A stretch of 18,384 nt of DNA from a virus (lineage: Duplodnaviria; Heunggongvirae; Uroviricota; Caudoviricetes). The stretch is from the IMG/VR virus record IMGVR_UViG_2645727539_000015, one strand, 5' to 3'. The stretch's first letter is position 1. The number at the start of each line of letters is the position of its first letter. The position numbers and the translations under genes are program-made. The notes below the pieces were generated by a model. It was given only the letters and a program-made list of their open reading frames with translations. It was not told the DNA's origin and did not search any database. Of the stretch, positions 3,022 through 9,300 are shown in pieces.

Positions 3022-3263
3022 CAGGGTATCAGTTAGCCGGCGAAATTTTTAAATACCTCACAATTCAGCAAGTTTATGATTGTCTGGCTGACTGCGAATT
3101 TGTTAAAAATCGCGTCGCATGGTGAATCCCCCTCAGCGGCGGGGCATATCAGTACAGGTGTTTTCGTTTAGCCTTATCCTTTCTGTGCGGGTTCAGGTAC
3201 TGATACTGAACTCACCGGGAGGCACCCGGCACCATGCAGTATACAGAGATTAGGCATATCACC

Positions 3264-3289
3264 AGCCCCCTCTTCGGAGGGGGCTTTTT
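3264..3289 (+). terminator. rho-independent terminator (9-bp stem, UUCG tetraloop, T5)
   Basis: AGCCCCCTC-TTCG-GAGGGGGCT followed by TTTTT 3285-3289. Confidence 0.6.
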
Positions 3290-3386
3290 ACATGCAAAAA
3301 AAGCCCGCGTAGGGGGCGGGCGGTAAGAAATAAAACAAAACGTGAAGAAAATTATTCAGCTATTGGATAATACCTGAGGATTATGA

Positions 3387-3497: not shown

Positions 3498-5411
3498 ATG
3501 GCATTTAAACATTATGATGTGGTCAGGGCTGCGTCGCCTTCAGACCTTGCGGAGCGACTGACACAAAAACTGAAGGAAGGCTGGCAGCCGTTTGGCAGCC
3601 CGGTCGCCATTACCCCTTATACCCTGATGCAGGCGATTGCCGCAGAAGGGGATGTCACCACGCCTGTCGTGGTGACACCGGAGGAAGGCGGTGCGGTGGT
3701 GAGCGATCCGACCCGTGAGCCTGAATATTACTATGTGCTGGTCACCGCAGGTCAGTCCAACAATATGGCAACCGGCGAAGGTATGCCCCTGCCTGACAGC
3801 TACGACCGTCCCGATCCACGCATTAAGCAGCTGGCCCGCCGCAGTGTGGTCCGACCGGGTGGTGCTGCCTGTAAATACAACGATGTGATTGAGGCCGATC
3901 ACTGTCTCCATGACGTTGAAGACATGAGTGCCAAAAATCACCCCAACGCGGACCTTTCCCGTGGTCAGTATGGTTGTGTCGGGCACGGCCTGCATATTGC
4001 CAAACGTCTTCTGCCCTATATTCCGGTTAATGCGGGGATCCTGATTGTGCCGTGCAGTCGTGGTGGCTCTGCGTTTACCGATCGTGATGAGGGTACCTAT
4101 AACCCGGAGACGGGGGCAACAGCGGATTCCTCCCGCTGGGGTGTGGGTAAACCGTTGTACATGGATTTAATTGCCCGCACGAAGGCGGCCCTTGAAAAGA
4201 ATCCGAAAAACGTCCTGCTGGCCGTGTACTGGATGCAGGGCGAGGGTGACTGTATGTCTTCAGGTTACACGGGGCATCCGGCGTTGTTTACGGCCATGGT
4301 GAAACAGTTCCGTACCGATCTAGCCGCGTATGCCGGTCAGTGCCTGGGCGGCGATGCGGCCCGTGTACCCTGGGTATGTGGTGACACCACCTTCTGGTGG
4401 AAGCAACAGTACCCGACACAATACAGCCTGGTTTATGGCGCGTACCGTAAAAACAGTGAGCCGAATGTGCATTTTGTCGAACTCATGAAGGATGAGACCG
4501 GTGCGAATGTTCCGACCAATAACCCGGCAGAAGATCCGGATGTGCCGGAAGCAAATTATTACGGTGCAGCATCACGCACGGCGGGTAACTGGACGAACCC
4601 GACACGCGCCATGCATTTCAGTTCCTGGGCCCGTCGCGGCATCCTGCCGGACCGTATAGCCACCGCAATCCTGACCCATGCAGGGCGTAACGGACCGTTC
4701 CTTGCCGGTGGAGATATAACGGAAAACTATCCGGAACCGGCAAAACCGAAGAGTAACGTTACCACCCTGTACAGCGGTGCAGAAAGTGAAGGTGCTTATG
4801 CCGAACAGGGCTGGACGCTGAGCGAAGGTAAGGCGGAAGTGGTACAGGATGAAAGCAGTGCTTCCGGACGGGCGCTGAAACTGAGCCAGGATGAAGCAAT
4901 GAACCTGAAGCTGACCCGTGAAGTGGCAAATGCGGCGGAACTGCTGAAAAACGGCGGTAAAATTACCTGTCGTTTTAAAATACCGGGAAGTGCGAACGGA
5001 AAACAGATAGCCCTGGCGATGTATCTGCAGCTGAAGGAAAGCGATATCCCTGAAGGTGTGGAATTTGCCAATAAGGCGGACGGTACCCATCCGTTCCTGG
5101 TGGCGTTCTATCTGCAGACAGAAACGGATGGCAAACTCAGTCTGATGCACAATGGTGCAGCGCAGACGCGTGTTGCGGGATACGGTACGCTGAACAGTGA
5201 ATGGCACACACTGGAGCTGGTATATCCGGGAGGAGGCCAGAACACGGTGACGCCGTATGTTGATACGGTAAAAGCTCCGACCACACAGCTGTCCTGGTTT
5301 AAATATGAAGGACAGGAGAACACGCTTATTCTGACGGATGCGTCGAATACAGCCACGTATGAAACGTGGATTGACGCGCTGACAGTGGAAGTAAACAGTC
5401 CGGCAGCCTGA
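3498..5411 (+). CDS. nanS-p: prophage NanS-p-type sialate (9-O-acetyl-Neu5Ac) O-acetylesterase, 637 aa
   Basis: ATG 3498 with GGGAGGA 5 nt upstream. N-terminus MAFKHYDVVRAASPSDLAERL is DUF1737-like, followed by a sialate-O-acetylesterase/SGNH-type region (YYYVLVTAGQSNNMATGEG) and a C-terminal domain. The position after the tRNA triplet matches the large esterase ORF of Stx-converting phages as I recall it. Confidence 0.85.
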   Translation: MAFKHYDVVRAASPSDLAERLTQKLKEGWQPFGSPVAITPYTLMQAIAAEGDVTTPVVVTPEEGGAVVSDPTREPEYYYVLVTAGQSNNMATGEGMPLPDSYDRPDPRIKQLARRSVVRPGGAACKYNDVIEADHCLHDVEDMSAKNHPNADLSRGQYGCVGHGLHIAKRLLPYIPVNAGILIVPCSRGGSAFTDRDEGTYNPETGATADSSRWGVGKPLYMDLIARTKAALEKNPKNVLLAVYWMQGEGDCMSSGYTGHPALFTAMVKQFRTDLAAYAGQCLGGDAARVPWVCGDTTFWWKQQYPTQYSLVYGAYRKNSEPNVHFVELMKDETGANVPTNNPAEDPDVPEANYYGAASRTAGNWTNPTRAMHFSSWARRGILPDRIATAILTHAGRNGPFLAGGDITENYPEPAKPKSNVTTLYSGAESEGAYAEQGWTLSEGKAEVVQDESSASGRALKLSQDEAMNLKLTREVANAAELLKNGGKITCRFKIPGSANGKQIALAMYLQLKESDIPEGVEFANKADGTHPFLVAFYLQTETDGKLSLMHNGAAQTRVAGYGTLNSEWHTLELVYPGGGQNTVTPYVDTVKAPTTQLSWFKYEGQENTLILTDASNTATYETWIDALTVEVNSPAA

Positions 5412-5952: not shown

Positions 5953-6032
5953 GGGGTTATATGCAGGTCACCGGTCAGGAGGCGGGTGACCCTGTTGTTT
6001 CTGCGGACTTCCGTCAGTCGGGAGGCGAGGGC

Positions 6033-6248
6033 ATGTATCAGATGGAAAAAATAGCAACGGGTGTGTCGTACAGCACATCAGCGGCGGGGACGGGATACTG
6101 GTTGTTTCAGATACTGGATAATGTCACGCCCTCACAGTGGACGGCTATTGGAGTGCTGGGGAGTCTGTTTTTTGGTTTGCTGACATACCTCACCAATCTG
6201 TATTTCAAAATCAGAGAGGACCGGCGTAAGGCAGCCCGGGGAGAGTGA
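6033..6248 (+). CDS. S: pinholin (phage 21 S21-like class II holin) with dual-start motif MYQMEK
   Basis: [23 protein letters not shown]...[22 protein letters not shown] closely matches the phage 21 pinholin as I recall it. GGAGG sits 7 nt before ATG 6033 and a second ATG at 6042 gives the antiholin/holin pair. The track ORF start at 5961 is an in-frame leader. Confidence 0.9.
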
Positions 6249-6252
6249 GACG

Positions 6253-6786
6253 GTGAGTCAGAAAGTCCGTTATGGTTTATCGGCTGCGGTTCTGGCGCTG
6301 ATTGCCGCAGGTGCTTCTGCGCCTGACATTCTTGACCAGTTTCTGGATGAAAAGGAAGGTAACCACACCACGGCATACCGTGATGGTGCGGGTATCTGGA
6401 CCATCTGCCGTGGTGCCATTCTGGTGGATGGTAAACCTGTTGTTCCGGGGATGAAGTTGTCGAAGGAAAAATGCGACCAGGTTAATGGCATTGAACGTGA
6501 TAAGGCGCTGGCATGGGTGGAGAAAAACATCAGAGTGCCACTGACTGAACCCCAGAAAGCGGGGATCGCGTCATTCTGCCCGTACAACATTGGCCCCGGT
6601 AAGTGTTTTCCGTCGACGTTTTATAAACGAATTAATGCAGGTGATCGAAAAGGTGCCTGCGAAGCGATTCGCTGGTGGATTAAGGACGGTGGCAGAGACT
6701 GCCGTATCCGCTCAAACAACTGCTACGGTCAGGTATCCCGTCGTGACCAGGAAAGTGCGCTGGCGTGCTGGGGCATCGACAGATAG
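6253..6786 (+). CDS. R: SAR (signal-anchor-release) endolysin, T4-lysozyme-like
   Basis: GTG start 4 nt after the holin stop; N-terminal Gly/Ala-rich weak TM segment YGLSAAVLALIAAGASA; catalytic E/D/T spacing (EGNH..RDGAG..WTICRG) typical of the family and of pinholin partners. Confidence 0.85.
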   Translation: MSQKVRYGLSAAVLALIAAGASAPDILDQFLDEKEGNHTTAYRDGAGIWTICRGAILVDGKPVVPGMKLSKEKCDQVNGIERDKALAWVEKNIRVPLTEPQKAGIASFCPYNIGPGKCFPSTFYKRINAGDRKGACEAIRWWIKDGGRDCRIRSNNCYGQVSRRDQESALACWGIDR

Positions 6787-7083
6787 CAGAATATTTTGCT
6801 GAAAAATAACGTTTACTCACGCGGACGGATAACACGAAATCCTGCGAACTGGCAAAATGTAAGTGGATAAAGTCAAAACAGTTGTTTAACACTCAGGCAC
6901 TGTAATGGTGCCTTTGTCATTTCTGCGCTTCGCACAAGCGTAAATAAACCAAAGAACCTTTCAGGATGAGCCCTGGTGGATAACCGGCAGTGGTCTGGTT
7001 AACCCTCTTTGGGCTGGTTATTCCTGTGCGCAGGGTTCATCACTAAAAGGAATCAACCATGAAAGAGATGATTTCTGTCGATC

Positions 7084-7686
7084 ATGACACCTCATGAACC
7101 GCGTAAGTTCCTTGCAAAAATTGAGGACGAACTTGAGCTTGAGGTAACCTGGAAAAAATTCCGGTTAAACAATAACCAGACAAGAACGGCATACTATGAT
7201 CTGGATTTTGACCAGATGATGCTCGTTGGCATGAGGGAGTCAAAGGCCGTTCGTCGTTCTGTGCTGGCAAGACTCAAAGCGATGCATGGTATTCAGATCC
7301 CCCGGACTTTACCTGAGGCGTTGCGATTTGCGGCAAAACTGGCAGAACAGAAAGCAGAGCTGGAAAATCAACTGGCAATAGCAGCGCCGAAGGCTGAATT
7401 TGTTGATAACTATGTTGAAGCATCTGGTCTGATGGGATTCCGGGAAGTTGCTAAGTTATTCGGTATCAAAGAAACCGATTTCCGGCTGTTTTTGTTGGAG
7501 AACGGAATAATGTATCGCCTCGCTGGAAAAATGACGCATTACTCGCATCACCTGGATGCGGGGCGGTTTAGCGTGAAAACGGGCGAGGCGGGCAATGGTC
7601 ATGCTTTTACGCAGGTTAAATTCACCCCAAAAGGTGTTCAGTGGATTGCTGGTCTGTTTGCTGCATGGAGAGCTACCGCAGCATGA
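7084..7686 (+). CDS. phage antirepressor-like protein (KilAC/Ant C-terminal domain), possibly N-terminally truncated
   Basis: C-terminal half (AKLFGIKETDFRLFLLENGIMY...FTPKGVQWIAGLF) fits the KilAC pattern. No SD before ATG 7084, whereas an SD-equipped ATG at 7058 opens a 12-codon ORF in another frame. Confidence 0.5.
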   Translation: MTPHEPRKFLAKIEDELELEVTWKKFRLNNNQTRTAYYDLDFDQMMLVGMRESKAVRRSVLARLKAMHGIQIPRTLPEALRFAAKLAEQKAELENQLAIAAPKAEFVDNYVEASGLMGFREVAKLFGIKETDFRLFLLENGIMYRLAGKMTHYSHHLDAGRFSVKTGEAGNGHAFTQVKFTPKGVQWIAGLFAAWRATAA

Positions 7687-7778
7687 AGATGATAAAAATG
7701 GACTGGAAATTTTTGCTGGTCTGGCTGATTCCGTTTTTATGGGTGGTTGCCCGGTTAATTACTGCTATTAAGGGGTAA
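7683..7778 (+). CDS. possible tiny membrane peptide (31 aa)
   Basis: ATG 7683 overlaps the Ant-like stop (ATGA); MKMIKMDWKFLLVWLIPFLWVVARLITAIKG is hydrophobic. Too short for the ORF track; coding status uncertain. Confidence 0.25.
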   Translation: MKMIKMDWKFLLVWLIPFLWVVARLITAIKG

Positions 7779-7780
7779 AG

Positions 7781-7912
7781 ATGTCAGACAAACTCATAAT
7801 GCTGGCGAAGGGCCTTTGTATAATCGTCGGTATTTCATTTTCACTAATGCTGGTTGCTCTTTTTCTTTCCCTGGGCTGGATGATGTTGTCTTCGTCGGGG
7901 ATGCTGGGGTGA
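7781..7912 (+). CDS. possible tiny membrane peptide (43 aa)
   Basis: ATG 7781 with AAGGGG 5 nt upstream; [43 protein letters not shown]; stop is followed directly by the Rz RBS. Confidence 0.3.
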
Positions 7913-7919
7913 GGGGGAT

Positions 7920-8414
7920 ATGAACCGCGTTCTGTGTGTGGTCATCATTGCCCTGCTGGTGGCCTGTGGTGCGCTTAGTCTGGGGCTGAATCATTACCGC
8001 GATAACGCCATTACCTACAAAGCGCAGCGCGATAAAAAAGTCAGTGAGCTGAAACTGGCAAACGCAACCATTACTGATATGCAGCAGCGCCAGCGTGATG
8101 TTGCTGTGCTCGATGCAAAATACTCGAGGGAATTAGCCGATGCGAGAGCTGAAAATGAAACTCTGCGTGCTGATGTTGCCGCTGGTCGTAAGCGCCTGCG
8201 GATCAACGCCACCTGCTCAGGTACCGTGCGTGAAGCCACCGGCACCTCCGGCGTGGATAATGCAACCGGCCCCCGATTGGCAGACACCGCTGAACGGGAT
8301 TATTTCATCCTCAGAGAACGGTTGATGACAATGCAGAAGCAGCTGGAAGGGGCGCAGGAATATATCCGCACTCAGTGCACTAAGCTGGCTTTTTATTATC
8401 CGGAGGATACATGA
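7920..8414 (+). CDS. Rz: i-spanin Rz
   Basis: N-terminal TM then [45 protein letters not shown]...[22 protein letters not shown], very close to lambda Rz; GAGGGGG SD. Confidence 0.85.
8140..8325 (+). CDS. Rz1: o-spanin Rz1 lipoprotein, embedded in the +1 frame of Rz
   Basis: [20 protein letters not shown] lipobox followed by proline-rich [32 protein letters not shown], lambda Rz1-like; lies wholly inside Rz. Confidence 0.8.
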
Positions 8415-8635
8415 AGAAATTACTGGTAACCGTAAAGCCTTTTCAGGGAACAATTCCGTTCCGTATTTTGCAGCGTGGTCGTGTTCTTGTTGAAGGTTCG
8501 TTCAGTGGTAAATGTACGCAATTACACACCCGGACCTTTCAGGTGAATGCCACGAATGAAGCGCTAACCGTTGAGTGTACGATGAATGCCGCTAAATGCC
8601 GCATGGTATCCGCTGCATTACAGCCAGTGTGTTGA
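8411..8635 (+). CDS. hypothetical protein (74 aa)
   Basis: ATG overlaps the Rz stop (ATGA), suggesting translational coupling; no recognisable domain. Confidence 0.3.
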
Positions 8636-8973
8636 GTGACCTTATTATCCATACGCGGTATTGTCGCCGTATTCCTGCATTAACAGAGACCGCAGCCCGA
8701 CAGGGAGACTACTCTGCGCGAGTGTGCGGGGGTAATCAAAAACGATACACACCGGGGTTTACCGCGTTAACGGAGCGCGGCGTTGTCCCCTCATGGTCGC
8801 CTGTCCGGTGCGATGGTGGAAGAAACTGGACGAAGTGTTACCTCGCAAGCCCTGTTATGCCATGTGTCTGATTTGTGATTTAAGTCGGATAATTGTCGTT
8901 GCCATTAAGCAGAGGATTGATGACCGACAGGGTGGCATTGTTAGAATAAGACTTATTCTTATCTGTGCCGGGA

Positions 8974-9300
8974 ATGAAAAGAAATCTTCCGTTAATTATT
9001 TTGTTGTCTTCTCTGGTTATGGGGTGTTCGCAACATAAAACTGATATGCCACGACAGTTGGTTAAGGCGTTACCACAATATCCGGAATATGCAGCAGCTA
9101 ATCACATTAAGGGGCGTGTTGATGTGAAGTTTGATATTGGTGCTGATGGTACTGTCACCCGAATTGAGTTTATCCGTTCAGAACCGCACCATCTGTTTGA
9201 TGACCAGGTTGTAAAGGCGATGGCAAAATGGCGATTTGAGGAGGGCAAGCCGCGTAAAGGCGTGAAGAAAACATTTATCTTTAGTCCTTCTGCGCCCTGA
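8974..9300 (+). CDS. lipoprotein with TonB C-terminal-like domain (108 aa)
   Basis: MKRNLPLIILLSSLVMGC lipoprotein signal with lipobox Cys; ALPQYPEYAAANHIKGRVDVKFDIGADGTVTRIEFIRSEPHHLFDDQVVKAMAKWRFE matches the TonB_C signature (P-YP...G-V-V-F-V...G-V...FD-A...A...W-F). The track start GTG 8965 is less likely than ATG 8974. Confidence 0.7.
   Translation: MKRNLPLIILLSSLVMGCSQHKTDMPRQLVKALPQYPEYAAANHIKGRVDVKFDIGADGTVTRIEFIRSEPHHLFDDQVVKAMAKWRFEEGKPRKGVKKTFIFSPSAP

Follow-up and report, generated by a model that had tools for sequence, protein, structure and literature searches.

The window analysed here is an 18,384-nt stretch of DNA from a Caudoviricetes virus record (IMG/VR IMGVR_UViG_2645727539_000015), and this work concerns the part of its lysis cassette that lies between the endolysin gene R and the spanin gene Rz, where an antirepressor-like gene (ant) encoding a KilAC domain is followed by two very short open reading frames (ORFs), mini-ORF1 and mini-ORF2. 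Taken together, our results make it very probable that ant is a pseudogene created by a 68-bp deletion within an already known accessory slot, and that the two mini-ORFs are separate membrane-protein genes of the cassette. The cassette (5961-8635, plus strand) appears to be that of an Escherichia coli lambdoid prophage of the Shiga toxin (Stx) phage type, in which pinholin S is followed by a signal-anchor-release (SAR) type lysozyme R, the accessory slot with ant and the two mini-ORFs, and Rz/Rz1. A previous reading of this DNA from its letters alone (hereafter, the sequence-only reading) had placed a KilAC Ant-like gene between the endolysin and Rz, and domain matches agree with this placement, with PF03374 in the gene itself and PF00959 and PF03245 in the two genes that flank it.

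A 68-bp deletion in ant

The sequence-only reading had drawn attention to an anomaly at the start of ant, where a Shine-Dalgarno (SD) sequence, AAAGGA, serves the ATG of a 12-codon ORF and the long KilAC ORF opens inside that ORF, in another frame and with no SD. The SD lies where it had been reported, and so does the long ORF, whose ATG at 7084 is in the +1 frame relative to the leader ORF. The 12-codon ORF is also present, one base away from where it had been placed (7059-7097 instead of 7058-7096), with its stop codon at 7095-7097. The nearest phage records, Lys8385Vzw, phi-O153 and PhiR5_1, align with the query in two pieces at about 96% identity, are about 68 bp longer, and annotate an 'Ant' gene of 696 nt (231 aa) whose start codon is precisely the ATG served by this SD. 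The Ant of the Stx1 phage phi-O153 (AAW21765), gp63 of Lys8385Vzw and the PhiR5_1 protein derive from the same gene as that of the window (95-98% identity), which occupies the same position between R and mini-ORF1/mini-ORF2/Rz behind the same leader and SD, but they are intact at 231 aa, whereas the window copy lacks 68 bp and is frameshifted.

The intact E. coli allele in GCA_903973585.1 (locus L016) is identical to the window on either side of the 68-bp gap, and we therefore place a clean deletion at 7087/7088. From the same start codon, intact alleles read MKEMISVDHEISMSS, and homologues begin MKEMISVDH; the loss takes out codons 10-32 and shifts the frame, and the ATG at 7084, which shares the frame of the remaining codons, arises by chance from the CAT-GA of codons 9-10 at the junction. 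Among the possibilities that the sequence-only reading had raised, a frameshifted gene is the one upheld by these alignments, with the SD-served ATG as the ancestral start. The 12-codon 'leader' is thus the stump of ant, and the 200-codon ORF its out-of-frame remainder. The latter matches the KilAC domain (PF03374, E=4.2e-26, 91.8 bits against a cutoff of 25.3) over residues 94-193 of 200, and phrog_63, 'anti-repressor Ant' (E=2e-53), over profile positions 151-359 only. A repeat-mediated origin of the deletion was considered and rejected, the junction having no visible microhomology in an alignment judged by eye.

The junction-spanning sequence was found in none of the 5,426 complete E. coli genomes, whereas the intact sequence is present in 227 of them. 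Such rarity would fit an error of sequencing or assembly in a gene that is intact in the organism, but we regard this explanation as exceedingly improbable: the identical junction occurs in an NCBI assembly (GCA_000446685.2, locus L006) and in an independent Logan assembly of SRR19671077 (locus L007), and the clean loss of 68 bp with no border repeat is atypical of assemblers. Since two datasets share the junction and complete genomes lack it, the allele is real but private to one lineage. Its exact 200-aa product is WP_249439454.1 (E. coli), found on two contigs only. The NCBI Prokaryotic Genome Annotation Pipeline (PGAP) names this protein an ordinary 'phage antirepressor KilAC domain-containing protein' and leaves the disruption unflagged; as one more decaying prophage accessory gene, it should be flagged as disrupted there.

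The sequence-only reading had also raised the possibility of leader-peptide coupling. In such an arrangement, the 12-codon ORF would be functional and ribosomes would scan back from its stop codon to the ATG at 7084 to produce a functional, shortened KilAC protein. This ATG does lie in frame with the remainder of the gene, 13 nt before the leader stop, the 200 codons downstream are intact and the allele is found in at least two datasets; nevertheless, we consider coupling very unlikely. No SD precedes 7084, and the arrangement was made by a deletion that has no match in other genomes. Every homologue, in all genera, has its start about 31 codons earlier, at MKEMISV..., and a length near 231 aa; a homologue starting at the position equivalent to 7084 was looked for, and there is none. 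The residues missing from the window are, moreover, the most conserved part of the N-terminal domain, and other ant alleles carry unrelated inactivating lesions. A deletion within an ancestral 231-aa gene thus remains the preferred account of the start region.

Table 1. Features of the lysis cassette in the window, with the evidence for each.
Feature	Position	Strand	Evidence
Phage-21-type class II holin (pinholin S), cassette start	5961-6248	+	PF04971 E=1.6e-31; phrog_9876/phrog_20 holin
Lysozyme R, hydrophobic SAR-like N-terminus MSQKVRYGLSAAVLALIAAGASAP	6253-6786	+	PF00959 E=8e-24; phrog_7 endolysin
Conserved spacer/leader of the accessory slot, 272 bp	6787-7058	+	common to cassettes with unrelated ant genes
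Terminator-like hairpin and T-run, just 3' of R	6895-6913	+	consensus scan
Long imperfect hairpin (~35 bp), predicted, CCUUU paired with ant SD AAAGG	6957-7051	+	folding prediction
SD AAAGGA of the ancestral ant start	7046-7051	+	read from sequence
5' stump of ant: true start codon and 9 native codons, 3 out-of-frame codons, TGA	7059-7097	+	translation MKEMISVDHDTS, then stop
Junction of the 68-bp deletion	7087/7088	+	alignment with intact allele L016; GATCATGA / CACCTCATGA
200-codon out-of-frame 3' remainder of ant: part of N-domain, linker, KilAC	7084-7686	+	PF03374; phrog_63
Mini-ORF1, 31 aa, predicted single-pass membrane peptide	7683-7778	+	SD GGAGAG 7667-7672; phrog_6632
Mini-ORF2, 43 aa, predicted single-pass inner-membrane peptide	7781-7912	+	SD AAGGGG 7770-7775; phrog_4906
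Rz i-spanin	7920-8414	+	PF03245 E=2e-49; phrog_13
Embedded Rz1 o-spanin ORF, +1 frame, lipobox-like LVVSAC	8140-8325	+	ORF list; equivalent in relatives is PF06085 Rz1
74-aa conserved hypothetical ORF, ATG overlaps Rz stop (ATGA)	8411-8635	+	phrog_2571 E=1e-27

Loss of the conserved N-terminal motif

A family search returned 2,524 homologues at E<=1e-10, and lengths and genera were taken from the best 120. Nearly all of these measure 229-237 aa, and their hosts are Escherichia, Shigella, Salmonella, Plesiomonas, Cronobacter, Pantoea, Providencia, Enterobacter, Citrobacter and Yersinia, so that a length of about 231 aa is conserved across Enterobacterales. When 34 diverse members are aligned, the stretch deleted in the window coincides with the most conserved N-terminal motif of the family (SMSSLDFLNNIINPxRxEAGE), with near-invariant residues at M13, S15, L16, D17, F18, I22, I23, N24, R27, G31 and E32. 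The AlphaFold2 model of an intact member (mean predicted local distance difference test score of 74, and about 80-87 over N-domain residues 11-50 and 71-90) places the lost residues in helix 15-29, helix 1 of a helical and beta-hairpin N-terminal domain that is followed by a long linker helix and then by the KilAC domain. The predicted architecture of the family is a helical or winged-helix-like N-domain, a coiled linker and a KilAC domain.

The sequence-only reading had asked whether a Bro-N or KilA-N domain was missing from the window protein. This idea was not borne out, as intact homologues exceed the window protein by only 31 residues, and in an intact member Pfam detects KilAC alone, with neither Bro-N nor KilA-N. 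Similarly, Pfam found none of the P22-type antirepressor domains (PF10547 P22_AR_N, P22_AR_C) in the window ORF or in the intact homologue. Full-length members of the family, which form a subset of phrog_63 (cluster P0106), start with MKEMISV... or M..LI.V, carry the conserved motif and span about 229-237 aa; the window ORF has lost these features, and the gene is a member of the family by descent, yet a pseudogene.

Disruption is not confined to the window. In L015 (GCA_043505835.1, 1793-2578), ant has independently lost 2 bp close to its 3' end, which creates an in-frame fusion with mini-ORF1 in a 261-aa ORF. The same 3' region is read in another frame by a frameshift variant of 259 aa (P0132, 23 member sequences). 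Further variants comprise N-terminally truncated 156-aa calls and in-frame deletions of one or two codons. Decay of ant in resident prophages is thus recurrent.

In this lineage, then, the slot holds a gene of the KilAC 'Ant' family encoding about 231 aa, and in the window the clean deletion at 7087/7088 has taken away the conserved motif and predicted helix 1 and broken the reading frame. Ribosomes starting at the ancestral SD and ATG (7046-7051 / 7059) would then stop after 12 codons, at 7095-7097, and the 200-codon ORF from 7084 would be an untranslated or poorly translated remainder. We infer that the function of ant has been lost in this window.

A modular accessory slot between R and Rz

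The presence of an ant gene in this slot is already known: annotations place it between these two genes in phi-O153, Stx2 phage 86, P13374, Lys19259Vzw and Stx1_14040, and in Stx phages they go back about two decades. Two unrelated proteins occupy the slot, one of the KilAC type and one of the P22_AR_N type (189 aa), and both follow a shared spacer that extends from R through the SD. The P22_AR_N-type ant, found in P13374/O104:H4 phage, Stx2 phage 86 and Lys19259Vzw, has the same slot, spacer and SD as the window, and a mini-ORF2 homologue (ORF53, 49 aa) and then Rz come after it, as in the window, but its cassette has no mini-ORF1 and its protein is unrelated, with PF10547 P22_AR_N and ORF11CD3 domains in 189 aa and no KilAC.

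The distance between R and mini-ORF2, determined in the 92 loci that contain both, falls into discrete classes. A gap of about 353 bp, holding a 60-aa transmembrane (TM) ORF (phrog_1115), is the most frequent (58/92), followed by a gap of about 1,060 bp with an ant of near-intact length (16 loci, one of them the frameshifted L015) and a gap of 288-292 bp with a mini-ORF1-like ORF (12 loci). Five loci present a gap of 994 bp, all of them carrying the window's own allele, and the remaining one, at 860 bp, is of the P22_AR_N type. The 60-aa ORF belongs to a third family of small TM ORFs (phrog_1115/4493/3246; L090 1304-1486), which replaces ant and mini-ORF1 in the commonest cassette type, put at 53 of the 92 loci for this family. 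In PhiR5_1 (L003 2705-2821 onward), a 38-aa core of this family and a 28-aa TM ORF lie between mini-ORF2 and Rz. The tiny TM ORFs before Rz therefore vary in order and in number, from one to four.

Members of the KilAC family are placed differently in other genera: in Plesiomonas they separate endolysin from spanin, in Providencia they lie in the early region, and in Yersinia and Enterobacter they come immediately behind the spanins, ahead of the terminase. Because both the placement of the family and the contents of the slot vary in this way, the stretch from the lysis genes to the terminase can be regarded as a general site for accessory genes. In several genera the family recurs within lysis cassettes or just behind them, and late expression is to be expected for it.

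For the KilAC protein of the lysis slot, 'antirepressor' is an annotation label and not a finding. Our literature search for an ant gene in this position brought up no study devoted to its function, and the functional work found concerns only a different Ant, encoded in the early region of phage Phi24B, where an ant mutant affects relief of CI repression (PMC3064807). P22 Ant and Phi24B Ant, both of them antirepressors studied by experiment, share only the annotation label with the window protein, which has no P22_AR domains. The Phi24B gene is P22-Ant-like and lies upstream of qut/pR', outside the lysis cassette, whereas ant in the window lies within it.

The spacer that precedes ant belongs to the same modular arrangement. 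The spacer/leader end of the query (bases 1-284) is about 92% conserved in more than 300 phage records; P13374 aligns identically through the spacer as far as the SD, and homology to the P22_AR_N-type module stops just past it. In relatives, the SD belongs to the start codon annotated for the intact 231-aa genes. Folding of 6787-7060 gives a z-score of -2.5, with the predicted long hairpin pairing the SD, and RNAalifold predicts 35 pairs in the leader with zero covariation, because the sequences are nearly identical. Since the same sequence stands in front of the unrelated P22_AR_N-type ant, the predicted hairpin would belong to the slot and not to the gene. Searches of 6700-8000 against Rfam, at the gathering threshold and at E<=1, gave no match, and a known small RNA (sRNA) in the R-ant spacer was rejected as a candidate, as the AsxR, AgvB and Pas sRNAs map upstream of the holin instead. 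Ant-less relatives (L090 ~1230-1270) carry, at the place equivalent to the terminator-like hairpin of the window, a different GC-rich hairpin and T-run (AAAAACCCCG...CGGGGTTTT). The terminator-like element thus lies within the late operon, between R and Rz.

Two probable small membrane-protein genes before Rz

The two hydrophobic mini-ORFs described by the sequence-only reading are present at the positions it gave, the first overlapping the ant stop and the second ending at the Rz SD, and both are found in close relatives, where their absence would have spoken against them. The genes are tightly packed. The ATG of mini-ORF1 overlaps the stop of ant as ATGA, its own stop is separated by 2 nt from the ATG of mini-ORF2, whose SD lies inside the end of mini-ORF1, and the stop of mini-ORF2 is followed after 7 nt by the Rz ATG at 7920, with the Rz SD (GAGGGGG, 7911-7917) overlapping the last codons of mini-ORF2. 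Since the mini-ORFs are also present in ant-less cassettes, they do not depend on ant.

Mini-ORF2 matches phrog_4906 over its full length (E=4.4e-20, residues 1-43), and ORF53 of P13374 scores E=3.9e-32 against the same family. Mini-ORF2 is represented by 105 protein clusters, which are confined to E. coli and with few exceptions measure 43 aa, by 368 confirmed IMG/VR matches and by 191 phage records, mostly of Stx-converting and Shigella phages, in which it is located before Rz; PGAP annotates it as a hypothetical protein. The ORF is intact in 98-102 loci, and an SD-like motif and a start codon accompany it in every one of 98 loci, across at least four unrelated upstream contexts; copies in which the ATG is changed to ATA have another ATG in frame directly before it. 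Across 20 DNA haplotypes with 50 variable sites there are no stops and no indels.

Mini-ORF1 is less widespread, being found in 33 of about 102 loci, and it is shortened to 24 aa in five of those 33. It was not annotated in the one PGAP-annotated relative that was examined. The window form matches phrog_6632 weakly (E=2.3e-4, residues 7-30), and the 47-aa form of ant-less cassettes does so at E=3.4e-16. The ant module has its right-hand junction within mini-ORF1, near codon 7, and for this reason the forms with and without ant have different N-termini; the TM core is the same, and SD and ATG are kept in both. Neither mini-ORF matched Pfam, NCBIfam, PHROG lysis or PADLOC models, including those for holins, antiholins, releasins and defence proteins, and membership of a defence system was rejected on the basis of zero PADLOC matches.

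The nucleotide composition of both ORFs follows their reading frames. The frequency of T at codon position 2 is 0.56 against 0.27 in mini-ORF2 (P=0.0025, shuffles), where it resembles that of the Rz TM segment, and 0.55 in mini-ORF1 (P=0.012, shuffles), which is read in a different frame. ORF length, by comparison, is uninformative, as shuffles of 7683-7919 yield an ATG-initiated ORF of at least 31 codons in 38% of cases and of at least 43 codons in 15%. With divergent copies included, the ratio of nonsynonymous to synonymous polymorphism (pN/pS) of mini-ORF2 is 0.59 in its own frame and 0.77 and 0.94 in the other two, a weak difference, and in the close set it is 0.76. At the centre of mini-ORF2 (7830-7875), a stretch of about 45 nt (GTCGGTATTTCATTTTCACTAATGCTGGTTGCTCTTTTTCTTTCC) is near-invariant, synonymous sites included, in an alignment of six sequences that comprises phages with different flanking modules. 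Single changes, found in a minority of copies, affect one or two of its positions, and the ends of the ORF vary. This invariant centre could reflect a recombination linker, an RNA element or a recent sweep.

Several of these observations weigh against reading ant as a pseudogene and the mini-ORFs as genes. On the part of ant, the 200-codon remainder still forms an open frame with few changes and is treated by PGAP as an ordinary protein, and termination-reinitiation could operate at a low level because the ATG at 7084 precedes the leader stop so closely, even if any product made in this way would be expected to lack the core of the N-domain. On the part of the mini-ORFs, purifying selection at the protein level is weak, with pN/pS values (0.59-0.76) near those of the other frames, the invariant centre of mini-ORF2 could be a constraint on the nucleic acid, and mini-ORF1 is truncated in one lineage and missing from most cassettes. 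These features, together with the ease with which ORFs of such lengths arise in shuffles, are what would be seen if the mini-ORFs, and mini-ORF1 especially, were chance frames in the T-rich leader of Rz, conserved as a recombination linker or as the Rz initiation region. We nonetheless judge this to be rather unlikely. A leader conserved for its nucleotides alone would not readily explain a T bias at codon position 2 in the own, differing frame of each ORF, the maintenance of the SD and start of mini-ORF2 in unrelated contexts, with loss of the ATG offset by an adjacent one, or the lack of stops and indels in 20 haplotypes when the neighbouring spacer varies in length. Families in PHROG, furthermore, exist for all the mini-ORFs, and a homologue of mini-ORF2 in O157:H7 strain Sakai, XECs191, was reported as a translated novel small gene with ribosome-profiling (RIBOseq) and RNA-seq signal, a predicted SD, one predicted TM helix and a predicted inner-membrane localisation (Huecker et al. 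2017, PMC5597208). According to S5 Table of that study, about 2,700 Escherichia genomes carry it. XECs191 is homologous to mini-ORF2 (MMGWLMISDKLITLVKSLCVLVGISF), but it is called at 49 aa from an upstream start and follows a P22_AR_N-type ant, whereas mini-ORF2 has 43 aa and lies in a KilAC-type cassette.

The mini-ORFs are therefore probably genuine genes, already catalogued, with mini-ORF1 less secure than mini-ORF2, and we infer that both are translated in this strain as small inner-membrane peptides coupled to Rz. They would constitute separate, translationally coupled genes of the cassette and not of ant, with mini-ORF2 preceding Rz in most Stx-type cassettes whatever the slot holds, and supplying the Rz SD. 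Their most likely role would be that of small inner-membrane accessory proteins made with the late, or lysis, transcript.

Small membrane proteins encoded in lysis cassettes, such as P2 LysA and the antiholins, are known to tune the timing of lysis. Similarly, the Mu gp25 'releasin' is a membrane protein encoded beside a SAR endolysin and spanins that tunes endolysin release (PMC9239132). None of these proteins has any sequence or family relation to the mini-ORFs, and the likeness is one of analogy only; the Mu releasin is a DUF2730 protein with a cytoplasmic domain, whereas mini-ORF1 and mini-ORF2 are predicted to be bare TM peptides of 31 and 43 aa. By this analogy, the mini-ORF peptides might, speculatively, modulate lysis. 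It is conceivable, if unlikely, that mini-ORF2 and its interchangeable partners, namely mini-ORF1, the phrog_1115 ORF of 60 aa and the additional copies of PhiR5_1, form a class of tiny, Rz-coupled inner-membrane peptides that tune SAR-endolysin release, pinholin triggering or spanin function. If so, the tiny TM peptides of pinholin/SAR-endolysin cassettes would affect the timing of lysis and the release of Shiga toxin, and such a role would be of medical relevance because Stx release depends on phage lysis. Small TM peptides stand directly before Rz in about 190 sequenced Stx and Shigella phages, and a homologue shows ribosome footprints in O157:H7 Sakai.

Genomic context of the cassette

A scan of the plus strand from 6700 to 8700 for sigma-70-like promoters found none, which speaks against a moron-style promoter of ant's own, and the cassette is therefore presumed to be transcribed within the late operon. 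The lysozyme R gene is about 94% identical to the R of Stx phages, and the 74-aa ORF downstream of Rz corresponds to the hypothetical protein WP_000735655.1 of E. coli strain 4. The best complete-genome matches cover only 78% of the window, at 93% identity.

Upstream of the cassette, three tRNA genes (CAT, Arg-TCG and Arg-TCT) and a match to the STnc100 sRNA (160 bits), at 2010-2259 / 3087-3295, precede a 637-aa SASA/DUF1737 esterase ORF (3498-5411). This order from tRNAs to esterase is the Stx-phage layout downstream of Q. The ORF list contains no stxA-sized ORF between the tRNAs and the esterase, so that the window apparently represents an Stx-phage-like prophage without stx. Downstream of the cassette, a 111-aa ORF (8965-9300) presents a lipoprotein-like signal (LVMGC) and, according to the annotation of relatives, a TonB_C domain (PF03544, 'TonB family protein'); it is likely a moron between the lysis genes and the terminase.

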